Shown: piece after piece, positions 18,114 to 31,152 of the stretch
How positions within the stretch are numbered: position 1 is the first letter of the stretch
How the letters are laid out: the number at the start of each line of letters is the position of its first letter
DNA from: Escherichia coli
GTDB lineage: Bacteria; Pseudomonadota; Gammaproteobacteria; Enterobacterales; Enterobacteriaceae
NCBI RefSeq assembly: GCF_003991155.1
Contig: NZ_CP031293.1
Strand: one strand, 5' to 3'
Length of the DNA stretch: 64,000 nucleotides
The notes under the pieces: model-generated
Seen by the model: the letters and a program-made list of their open reading frames with translations, nothing else
Database searches by the model: none
Told to the model about the DNA's origin: nothing
Program-made: the position numbers and the translations under genes

Positions 18114-18258
18114 TCTTCTCAGCCCGGCGGCGGCGTCGCCGGGCTAAATCATTCACATCATCAATTTCAGCCTCGCTTTCATTCGAAATATAATTTGTGC
18201 TCTGCGTCACATTGTTATTACACTGTTACGGTTTCATTTTCGAGCCAGGAGCACACCT

Positions 18259-24793: not shown

Positions 24794-25912
24794 TTACCAG
24801 GCCGGGATCATAACTAACAAAACGTATCCCACCAGCGCCGCCCACAACAGCATCGGTATTGAATAGAGATGGAAACGCCACCAGATGCGGCGATCGTTCG
24901 CCATCCGTAACGCAATCAAATTTGCCAGCGATCCGGGTAATAAACCAAAGCCACCTACGTTTACCGCCCATGCCAATAATAAAGACGGTGGCACATAATT
25001 GAGCAGCAAAATGGTACTCGGCACGTTACTGATCACCTGCGATAAACCGATTGCCGTTAACCATAACCCGGGTTCAGATAAATGACTCACGTTACCCAAC
25101 ACGCCTTGCAACGCTGGAAGCTGGGTCAGTAAATGGACGTCGATAAACATCGCCATAAACACCAGCAGCAGCGTCCAGTCCACACTGAGCACCACGCGAC
25201 GTGCCAGCAGCGCAAAGCCTGCCGCCACAATCACCAGTCCCCACAGCTCTTGTTTGAACTCCAGCGCCGTCAGAAAGACGATATACAGCCCCAGACAACT
25301 CCACACCAGCCGCGGTTTCCACTCCGGCGTTTGCGCCCCCGTATGGTACGGCAGCGCCTTTCCAGGGAAACAACACCAGCACAACAGCAGGAGTGTCAGC
25401 ATCATTGCGCCAGCCAGCGGTGCCATTTGGGCAATAAATCCGGCAAACGAAAGACCAGAACGTCCCCAGATAAGAATATTTTGCGGGTTGCCAATTGGCG
25501 TCAGTAGCGAACCCGCATTGACTGCCAGCGCCTCAAAAATAATCAGCCGATTAACCGGGATCTCACACAGTCTTTTTAGCGTGATAGTCAGCGGAACAAC
25601 TATAAACAGCGCGACATCGTTGGTCAGAAAGGTAGAAAGCAGCGCCGCCGCCAGCACCATAAACATCGCCAGCCGACGCTCCGTAGCAAAGCGGCGCACC
25701 ATTTTGCGCCCCAGCACATCAAAATAGCCGCTTAACTCCACACCTTTGGTCAGCAGCATCAGGCCGCTTAAGGTGATGATGGTGTGCCAGTCGATAGCAG
25801 CAGGCCATGATTTCGGTGCAAAGGGCACGAAAAAGCTTAATCCGATACCAACAAGAATTAATAACTGAAAAAAACGATCGCCTTGCAGCGTGCGTAAAAA
25901 AGGCAGGCTCAT
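24794..25912 (-). CDS. ybiR: Inner-membrane transporter YbiR (ArsB/NhaD-type permease family)
   Basis: 372-aa polytopic membrane ORF; start overlaps the mntR stop (operon). Confidence 0.88.
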
Positions 25913-26376
25913 TTGGCACCGTGTTTCTGGGTAAACAAACGAAAAGCGTCGAGCGTCTCTTCACTAACATGGTGCTCCATGCCTTCCGCGTCGCGACGGG
26001 CGATTTCCGGACTGACGCCCAACACCAACAAGAAATTTTCGACTATCTGATGTCGCTCGCGGCTTTCCTGCGCCAGCTTCTCTCCTTCTGCCGTTAAAAA
26101 CACGCCACGCCAGGGGATCATTTCAATCAGCCCCATGGTTGCCAGTCGCTTAAGCATTTTAGCCACCGTCGGTTGCGAAACTCCCAAACGAGCAGCCATG
26201 TCTACCTGACGAGCTTCCCCCACTTCCCTGATCAAGTCAGAAATCAGCTCAACGTAATCATCAATAAGCTCGCGCCGATGCGCCTCTCTGACCTGGCGGA
26301 ACCCTTCAACGTGCTCTTCCACGTTCACTAACTGCGTCACTTTTTTTGCTGTTGGCGTACCTGCGCGACGACTCAT
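25909..26376 (-). CDS. mntR: Manganese-responsive transcriptional regulator MntR (DtxR family)
   Basis: 155-aa ORF; DtxR-type HTH and metal-binding region. Confidence 0.9.
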
Positions 26377-26477
26377 TGTGCTTCCTCATTATGGTGACGC
26401 ATACCTAGCGTTCTCATTTCGTGCGCACATTGTAAACCAGAGTTGCGAAGGTACAAAAAATTAACGTTTTAGCAATA

Positions 26478-26492
26478 GCTATATAATATAGC
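26478..26492. promoter_or_regulatory. 15-bp palindrome gctatataatatagc containing a TATAAT hexamer; candidate MntR operator / mntS promoter
   Basis: Read directly, about 70 bp upstream of the mntS ATG in the mntR-mntS divergent region. Assignment to MntR is inference. Confidence 0.4.
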
Positions 26493-26561
26493 CTGTGCTA
26501 TATCTGTATGTAATGCAATCATCCCTCAAGGATCGACGGGATTAGCAAGTCAGGAGGTCTT

Positions 26562-26690
26562 ATGAATGAGTTCAAGAGGTGTATGCGCGTGTTTAGTCAT
26601 TCTCCCTTTAAAGTACGGTTAATGCTGCTCTCTATGTTGTGCGATATGGTCAACAACAAACCGCAGCAAGATAAACCTTCCGATAAATAG
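26562..26690 (+). CDS. mntS: Small protein MntS (42 aa; manganese homeostasis)
   Basis: Not in the ORF track (under 60 aa). Translation MNEFKRCMRVFSHSPFKVRLMLLSMLCDMVNNKPQQDKPSDK matches MntS as I recall it; SD caggagg precedes the ATG. Confidence 0.85.
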   Translation: MNEFKRCMRVFSHSPFKVRLMLLSMLCDMVNNKPQQDKPSDK

Positions 26691-26961
26691 CGGCGTCGCG
26701 GTACGCCGCTTCACTCCTGCTTTTATGCAGGCACAACGCGTTTTGGTCTGAAAAACCCCACTTTTTGTCGGATTTGCAATCCCCTTCGCAAAAGATTTGT
26801 TCGTCAGTAGTTGACCTGAACGGCGGCTCGCTCTATCTTCTTGCAGCCCTGCGTATATTGCGGCTCGCGGATGCGGACCCCTTTCCCCTCTCCACGCACT
26901 CTTGCAGGTATTGACCCTTGACGCCAGGGTAAGCACATGGCGTTTGTTACGATAGTGGCAT

Positions 26962-28545
26962 ATGAATTTAACCCTCAAAGAATCGCTTGTTACCCGTAGC
27001 CGGGTATTTAGCCCGTGGACTGCGTTCTACTTTTTACAGTCGCTATTAATTAACCTCGGCTTAGGTTATCCCTTCAGTTTGCTCTACACCGCTGCGTTTA
27101 CGGCTATTTTGCTTTTGCTATGGCGAACATTGCCTCGCGTACAAAAAGTTCTGGTCGGTGTCAGTTCGCTGGTGGCGGCTTGTTATTTCCCTTTTGCTCA
27201 GGCCTACGGCGCGCCTAATTTCAATACATTGCTGGCATTGCACTCCACCAATATGGAAGAGTCGACCGAAATCCTGACGATTTTTCCGTGGTACAGCTAC
27301 CTGGTCGGCTTATTTATTTTTGCGCTCGGCGTAATAGCAATCAGGCGAAAAAAAGAGAATGAAAAAGCGCGCTGGAATACCTTCGACAGCCTGTGTCTGG
27401 TATTCAGTGTGGCGACATTTTTTGTTGCTCCCGTGCAAAACCTGGCCTGGGGCGGCGTATTTAAACTGAAAGATACTGGCTATCCGGTATTTCGTTTTGC
27501 TAAGGATGTCATCGTCAATAATAACGAGGTGATTGAAGAGCAAGAACGGATGGCAAAACTTTCCGGAATGAAAGATACCTGGACGGTCACTGCCGTTAAG
27601 CCGAAGTATCAGACCTATGTGGTGGTGATCGGTGAAAGCGCGCGTCGCGATGCCCTCGGTGCCTTTGGCGGTCACTGGGACAATACCCCGTTTGCCAGCA
27701 GCGTTAACGGTTTGATATTTGCTGACTACATTGCCGCCAGTGGCTCCACGCAGAAATCGCTTGGCTTAACGCTCAATCGCGTTGTCGATGGCAAACCACA
27801 GTTTCAGGATAACTTTGTCACCCTGGCAAATCGCGCGGGCTTCCAGACCTGGTGGTTTTCCAACCAGGGCCAAATCGGCGAATACGATACCGCCATCGCC
27901 AGCATCGCCAAACGTGCAGATGAAGTGTACTTCCTGAAAGAAGGTAATTTTGAAGCAGATAAAAACACGAAAGACGAAGCGTTACTGGATATGACCGCTC
28001 AAGTGCTGGCGCAAGAGCACTCGCAACCGCAGCTGATTGTTCTACATCTGATGGGCTCGCATCCGCAGGCCTGCGACAGGACACAAGGCAAATACGAAAC
28101 CTTTGTGCAATCAAAAGAAACGTCGTGCTATCTCTATACCATGACGCAAACGGACGATTTACTGCGCAAACTGTACGATCAGTTACGCAACAGCGGCAGC
28201 AGCTTCTCGCTGGTTTACTTTTCTGACCACGGTCTGGCCTTTAAAGAGCGCGGTAAAGACGTGCAATACCTTGCCCATGATGATAAGTATCAGCAAAATT
28301 TCCAGGTGCCTTTTATGGTCATTTCCAGCGACGATAAAGCGCATCGGGTGATTAAAGCCCGCCGCTCAGCCAATGACTTCTTAGGTTTTTTCTCCCAGTG
28401 GACGGGAATTAAAGCGAAGGAAATTAACATCAAATACCCGTTTATATCTGAGAAGAAAGCCGGGCCGATATACATCACCAACTTCCAGTTACAGAAGGTA
28501 GATTACAACCATCTCGGAACCGATATTTTCGACCCGAAACCTTAA
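26962..28545 (+). CDS. opgE: Phosphoethanolamine transferase OpgE (YbiP)
   Basis: 527-aa ORF with N-terminal TM helices and a sulfatase-like domain. Confidence 0.88.
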   Translation: MNLTLKESLVTRSRVFSPWTAFYFLQSLLINLGLGYPFSLLYTAAFTAILLLLWRTLPRVQKVLVGVSSLVAACYFPFAQAYGAPNFNTLLALHSTNMEESTEILTIFPWYSYLVGLFIFALGVIAIRRKKENEKARWNTFDSLCLVFSVATFFVAPVQNLAWGGVFKLKDTGYPVFRFAKDVIVNNNEVIEEQERMAKLSGMKDTWTVTAVKPKYQTYVVVIGESARRDALGAFGGHWDNTPFASSVNGLIFADYIAASGSTQKSLGLTLNRVVDGKPQFQDNFVTLANRAGFQTWWFSNQGQIGEYDTAIASIAKRADEVYFLKEGNFEADKNTKDEALLDMTAQVLAQEHSQPQLIVLHLMGSHPQACDRTQGKYETFVQSKETSCYLYTMTQTDDLLRKLYDQLRNSGSSFSLVYFSDHGLAFKERGKDVQYLAHDDKYQQNFQVPFMVISSDDKAHRVIKARRSANDFLGFFSQWTGIKAKEINIKYPFISEKKAGPIYITNFQLQKVDYNHLGTDIFDPKP

Positions 28546-29109: not shown

Positions 29110-29461
29110 AACCACCTCAAATGTGATTCAAATAAGTCCTAAGTTTTAAATATATCAAAAATTAATGGGAAACTCTTCGCGATTTATGATGTCTAACGGG
29201 CCATTTCATGTAACAGAACGTTTCCATACACCGCTATCCATCTAAATTTAAATCACTTTTTCAGAGAACTGCGTAAGTATTACGCATGTTTTCCCTGTCA
29301 TTCATCCAGATTATTCCTAATCACCAGACTAATGATTCCATCAATCCTGGCGCATTTTAGTCAAAACGGGGGAAAATTTTTTCAACAAATGCTCAACCAG
29401 CATTGGGTATATCCAGTACACTCCACGCTTTACTTAGGTTTAGATATTTGTGGGAGAAAGG

Positions 29462-30474: not shown

Positions 30475-31152
<678 letters not shown>

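Follow-up and report, generated by a model that had tools for sequence, protein, structure and literature searches.

The 42-codon open reading frame at 26562..26690 (+) is mntS, a real translated gene that lies on the RybA transcript and next to the repressor gene mntR. Throughout, "the window" denotes the whole stretch of Escherichia coli DNA that was analyzed (64,000 nucleotides). We consider it highly probable that, in this divergent mntR/mntS (rybA) pair, repression acts through two MntR boxes, A and B, built on the inverted repeat ATAGC-N4-GCTAT, and that a 15-bp palindrome over the -10 hexamer is a by-product of their layout. The mntS/rybA gene, its repression by MntR and the action of its product on MntP have already been published, and the gene is annotated by RefSeq; nothing here is new biologically, and the refinement of the operator register at the palindrome is the one small addition to what was already known.

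The mntS frame, as given in a listing of open reading frames, runs from an ATG at 26562 to a TAG ending at 26690 (42 codons plus stop). Its 42-aa product (MNEFKRCMRVFSHSPFKVRLMLLSMLCDMVNNKPQQDKPSDK) matched the NCBIfam equivalog model NF033226 (small_MntS) over residues 1-39, with a score of 96 bits (cut-off, 36; E = 6.3e-28), and is 100% identical to MntS of K-12. A local Pfam-A search with the 42-aa query returned no family. PF26599 is a precomputed Pfam label on MntS homologues, and the discrepancy between this label and the empty local result is probably due to a difference in library version. A Shine-Dalgarno sequence, AGGAGG, can be read at 26552..26557 (+), with 4 nt between it and the ATG. 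This hexamer was found no more than 12 nt from the mntS ATG in 78 of 79 distinct upstream sequences, and GGAGG in all 79. The initial annotation had proposed a small 42-codon frame with a strong Shine-Dalgarno at this place and had recognized its product as MntS; the frame is indeed there, and the identification is borne out by the NF033226 score, the RefSeq annotation, the identity to the K-12 protein and the selective constraint described below.

The comparison with K-12, which had been suggested as a check, gave the same answer. In the MG1655 annotation, mntS (b4705) is placed inside the ncRNA gene rybA (b4416, 852725..853064). The K-12 and window DNA are identical over 26406..26723, an interval that takes in the promoter, the 5' UTR, the coding sequence and the hairpin after the stop codon. 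Eight SNPs were counted across the 1.1 kb compared, every one of them outside the promoter and coding sequence, and both share the gene order ybiR-mntR / mntS-opgE-ompX. Of 5426 complete E. coli genomes, 5421 contain a 701-bp stretch around the locus, for which the listed RefSeq records carry mntS, mntR and opgE annotations.

Conservation of the 42-aa frame was the other check that had been proposed, and it too came out in favor of a protein-coding gene. A protein search for MntS homologues yielded 136 clusters, all of 38-72 aa and called MntS where named, from about 20 enterobacterial genera that include Escherichia, Citrobacter, Salmonella, Klebsiella, Enterobacter, Kosakonia, Kluyvera and Trabulsiella. 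We then compared 80 loci, one per species, together with the window (81 sequences). The mntS frame is intact in all 81, with a length of 41-43 codons, and pN/pS is 0.18 (mean pN 0.088, mean pS 0.498). Over the first 34 codons, the numbers of variable columns at codon positions 1, 2 and 3 are 16, 8 and 29, respectively, and in almost every sequence both the +1 and the +2 frame are closed. The low pN/pS, the excess of third-position variation and the intact frame together indicate that the MntS protein is under purifying selection. Expression of the protein has also been described in the literature. In an alignment of 21 MntS sequences, 15 residues are invariant (M1, N2, E3, K5, R6, C7, V10, F11, H13, S14, P15, F16, V18, R19 and L20); the MntS of the window has every one of them, within an N-terminal core that reads MNEFKRC..VF(S/T)HSPFKVRL.

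On the opposite strand, a 119-aa frame (26619..26978, -) overlaps the 3' part of mntS. It had no match in Pfam or NCBIfam and is unannotated in RefSeq. The stop-free stretch that contains it spans 135 aa in the window compared with a median near 53 aa across the 80 other species. We rejected this frame as a real gene on both counts, in line with the earlier view that it is spurious. Thus, at mntS, a 60-aa threshold for open reading frames hides a real, functional small gene while a spurious antisense frame appears instead. We also noted that RefSeq, for the matching strain, annotates yliM (21 aa, about 29162..29227, -) between ompX and rhtA, and that this frame likewise falls below the 60-aa threshold.

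The neighbor of mntS, at 25909..26376 (-), encodes a 155-aa Mn-sensing regulator of the DtxR family. It matched the MntR model NF008273 (269 bits; cut-off, 153), contains the Pfam domains Fe_dep_repress and Fe_dep_repr_C, and is annotated as mntR in RefSeq (b0817 in K-12). The gene is divergent from mntS, as had been described from the sequence, and lies 185 nt from the mntS ATG; in other genera, too, the region upstream of mntS contains the start of mntR and its Shine-Dalgarno.

Mn-bound MntR is known to repress mntS/rybA (PMC4361602; PMC4207228), and the literature on this repression concerns the identical K-12/BL21 sequence (PMC4361602, PMC4207228, PMC9806134). In particular, a PmntS:egfp reporter was repressed by Mn, and the response was lost in an mntR deletion strain and regained on complementation (PMC9806134). 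The primers given in the supplement of that study map exactly onto the window, at 26419..26437 and 26513..26532, so the reporter carries the fragment 26419..26532 (+). This fragment holds both boxes as well as the palindrome, and does not separate the registers discussed below.

The known MntR-regulated promoters offer a motif with which the mntS promoter can be compared. The box at the K-12 mntH promoter reads AAACATAGCAAAGGCTATGTTT, the two boxes at the K-12 mntP promoter read ACATAGCTTAGGCTAT and TTAGCCAAAGCTAT, and the dps box, which lies in the same window at 30586..30599, reads ATAGCTGGTGCTAT. The core common to the mntH, mntP and dps promoters is ATAGC-N4-GCTAT, and both this core and the flanks, (A/C)AT...AT(G/A)T, are common with the mntS boxes. 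Exact copies of the core occur twice in the window, against 0.03 expected, at dps and at 26488..26501; both copies are in promoters of MntR-regulated genes. The latter, which we designate box B (ATAGCCTGTGCTAT, 26488..26501), is the proposed main operator. It is centered on 26495, the annotated transcription start, and extends to a 7+4+7 inverted repeat at 26486..26503 (ATATAGC-CTGT-GCTATAT). A second copy with one mismatch, box A (TTAGCAATAGCTAT, 26469..26482), is the proposed auxiliary operator; it lies upstream of the -10 hexamer and overlaps its first base. The hexamer itself, TATAAT at 26482..26487 (+), is placed 7 nt upstream of the annotated start and would be the -10 element of the mntS/rybA promoter. 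The two boxes are 19 bp apart from center to center with the -10 between them, a layout that creates the extra 15-bp palindrome. The mntP promoter resembles that of mntS in combining an exact box with a TTAGC-N4-GCTAT variant; it differs in that the starts of its two boxes are 40 bp apart and, according to the literature, MntR activates at mntP and represses at mntS.

Box B is present in all 79 distinct orthologous promoters, with its exact sequence in 74, although for this box a comparison of spacer with half-sites says little, the spacer being nearly constant too. Box A is retained as [A/T]TAGC-N4-GCTAT in 73 of the 79 and as the exact ATAGC-N4-GCTAT in 13, and its spacers are of six kinds (CATA in 43, AATA in 25, CGTA in 6, CTTG in 2, and others). 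The whole block from 26456 to 26514 is highly conserved, which limits the power of a phylogenetic footprint to separate the registers. In two Citrobacter loci (L012 and L026), the DNA preceding the -10 bears no relation to that of the other loci, at about 95-115 nt before the mntS ATG; box A is missing there, and box B and the rest of the promoter are intact. Given these two loci, box A may be dispensable.

We also scanned the 64 kb with a 22-nt weight matrix trained on the mntH box, the two mntP boxes and the dps box in both orientations, with mntS left out of training. Box B (26484..26505) ranked first with 23.7 bits, above the dps training site itself (22.3 bits), and box A ranked fourth with 10.0 bits; the training sites had been chosen by the ATAGC-N4-GCTAT pattern, and only the flanking positions therefore count as independent evidence in these scores. 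The third-best match (AAATATAATTTGTGCTCTGCGT, 18186..18207, +, 11.9 bits) is probably due to chance. A full-text literature search for the literal box sequences returned no match. Both boxes carry the inverted repeat ATAGC-N4-GCTAT, the palindrome-centered register does not, and on the strength of the motif common to mntH, mntP and dps together with the conservation in 79 promoters we assigned boxes A and B as MntR operators; from these sequence comparisons we infer that they are the physical binding sites of MntR.

The initial annotation had pointed to a palindrome with TATAAT about 70 bp upstream of mntS as a candidate MntR operator. A 15-bp palindrome (GCTATATAATATAGC) is present exactly, at 26478..26492, with TATAAT inside it at 26482..26487 and its end 69 nt before the mntS ATG; its reading as an MntR operator in that register is probably wrong. 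It is made up of GCTAT, the right half-site of box A, followed by five bases of the -10 and by ATAGC, the left half-site of box B. The idea that its symmetry alone is statistically unusual was rejected after a count of perfect 7+1+7 palindromes in the 64-kb window (7 observed, 5.0 +/- 2.5 expected from first-order Markov simulations). The exact 15 bp are kept in only 23 of the 79 distinct orthologous promoters. Its central five bases vary in the manner of a -10 hexamer (ATAAT, AAAAT, ACAAT, GTAAT, AAAAC and others), and the -10 as a whole has the conservation pattern usual for such an element, with a variable third position.

Several other readings of this region were weighed against the two-box arrangement. 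That the palindrome itself, GCTAT-N5-ATAGC centered on 26485, is the operator, with one MntR dimer covering the -10, is very unlikely in our judgment. The palindrome is perfect, covers the -10, sits within the 26419..26532 fragment that gives Mn- and MntR-dependent repression (PMC9806134), and has its 5-bp arms kept in 73 of 79 orthologous promoters. Yet these arms point outwards, the spacer differs from that of the known boxes, and the mntH, mntP and dps promoters contain no GCTAT-N5-ATAGC. Registers centered on the palindrome scored -18.3 and -15.0 bits, which is at background level (window mean, -19.4), and palindromes of this type occur at chance frequency. Symmetry also fails where the palindrome would need it: the five outer pairs are kept in 77-79 of the 79 promoters, whereas the innermost pair is symmetric in only 32 and the next in only 64. 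Lastly, an operator confined to the palindrome does not explain why the half-sites outside it are conserved, namely GCTAT at 26497..26501 in 79 of 79 and [A/T]TAGC at 26469..26473 in 73 of 79. Taken at the level of sequence, the palindrome is thus probably not an operator itself, and probably a by-product of the place where two MntR boxes and a -10 meet.

The AT-rich center of the palindrome could alternatively consist of overlapping divergent -10 elements, TATAAT (+) for mntS and TATATT (-) for mntR, with the MntR boxes repressing both genes and mntR being autoregulated. We regard this as unlikely. A consensus scan did find ATTACA-18-TATATT on the - strand (26514..26485), which puts a divergent -10 inside the palindrome; both hexamers occupy alignment columns with hardly any variation between genera, and a divergent promoter would explain the invariant block at 26504..26514. 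The pair is nevertheless a consensus match only, its -10 hexamer reads TATGTT in 10 of 62 sequences, and the transcription start and transcript-map supplements that we searched contained no mntR start, the rybA RNA-seq interval being the only entry found. Moreover, a better-placed candidate lies nearer to mntR. Amid a variable intergenic stretch, CATTGTA at 26428..26434 forms a conserved island that reads TACAAT on the - strand (26434..26429), and TTGTAC (26456..26451, -) lies 16 nt upstream of it. This island is a candidate mntR promoter, back to back with that of mntS and, judged as a promoter match, at least as good as the one at 26514..26485. A more elaborate reading takes the four alternating half-sites, TTAGC-N4-GCTAT-N5-ATAGC-N4-GCTAT, whose dyads can be drawn in three overlapping registers, together with the invariant block at 26502..26514 as one composite operator on which two cooperative MntR dimers co-regulate mntS and mntR, or else takes the block as an undescribed additional regulatory element in the mntS leader; we find this quite improbable. 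Least credible of all is that the transcript is mainly a regulatory sRNA, RybA, in which the mntS frame is incidental. rybA is annotated as an ncRNA in K-12, an annotation that rests on experimental grounds, and RybA is reported, in Gerstle et al. (2012) as described in PMC4361602, to regulate aromatic amino acid genes under peroxide stress. Against this, mntS shows conservation of the protein type (its pN/pS, third-position variation and intact frame), the overproduction phenotypes were assigned to the MntS protein and are independent of Hfq (PMC4361602), and the RNA has neither an Rfam family nor a fold better than that of shuffled sequences. A dual function, as both sRNA and protein, is compatible with the evidence gathered here.

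The transcript itself was mapped from K-12. The annotated rybA interval (852725..853064) corresponds to 26495..26834 (+) in the window, encloses mntS and has its annotated 5' end at 26495. In an RNA-seq map, the rybA interval corresponds to 26510..26746 (PMC4681348, supplement), so the two reported 5' ends are 15 nt apart. We observed that a block just downstream of the annotated start (ATCTGTATGTAAT, 26502..26514) hardly varies among about 20 genera; its constancy is not accounted for by the ATAGC-N4-GCTAT core, and the RNA-seq 5' end at 26510 falls inside the block. An Rfam scan of 25800..27200 at E <= 1 found no RybA family and a single chance match to a snoRNA, and the 340-nt transcript had no excess fold stability over its shuffles (z = 0.07). 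The sole covarying structure found in RybA is a hairpin in the mntS 5' UTR (UCCCUC / GACGGG, 26522..26540, +; RNAalifold consensus), in which 26522..26527 pairs with 26535..26540. Across 25 genera and species, 91% of its cells are paired, and four of the six pairs have compensatory changes. A second hairpin, GCGGCGU-CGCGGU-ACGCCGC (26690..26709, +), shares its first base with the end of the mntS stop codon. Its 5' motif (GCGGCGTCGCGG) is found in 64 of 80 loci, and it lies near the 3' end of a RybA species of about 205 nt, such a 205-nt transcript having been reported (PMC4361602). A terminator scan after mntS found no canonical intrinsic terminator, and this hairpin is without a T-run.

Returning to the two-box arrangement, we propose the following course of events. 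With ample manganese, MntR dimers carrying Mn would occupy boxes A and B. With the start site inside box B, the -10 directly adjoining that box and the first base of the -10 shared with box A, the simplest reading is occlusion: MntR on the boxes would deny RNA polymerase access to the mntS promoter. As manganese falls, MntR would leave the DNA and MntS would be made, consistent with reports that MntS is made when Mn is scarce. MntS would then inhibit MntP, and the cell would keep its manganese. A block of the exporter MntP by MntS was earlier proposed on genetic grounds (PMC4361602), and MntS has since been reported to bind and inhibit MntP, and to self-associate with Mn present (bioRxiv 10.1101/2023.06.02.543501). 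According to the same report, MntS appears to be derived from the SitA signal peptide: homology to MntR-associated SitA signal peptides, functional substitution and an inherited association with mntR were described. Unlike SitA, MntS is encoded by a stand-alone frame without sitABCD downstream.

The other exact box in the window, at 30586..30599 (+), is situated about 50 nt before the dps ATG (30650) and overlaps a -10-like hexamer, TATACT. Since dps is listed among the MntR-repressed genes (PMC4207228, PMC5553809), the exact boxes at mntS and dps point to two MntR-regulated promoters in one 64-kb window.
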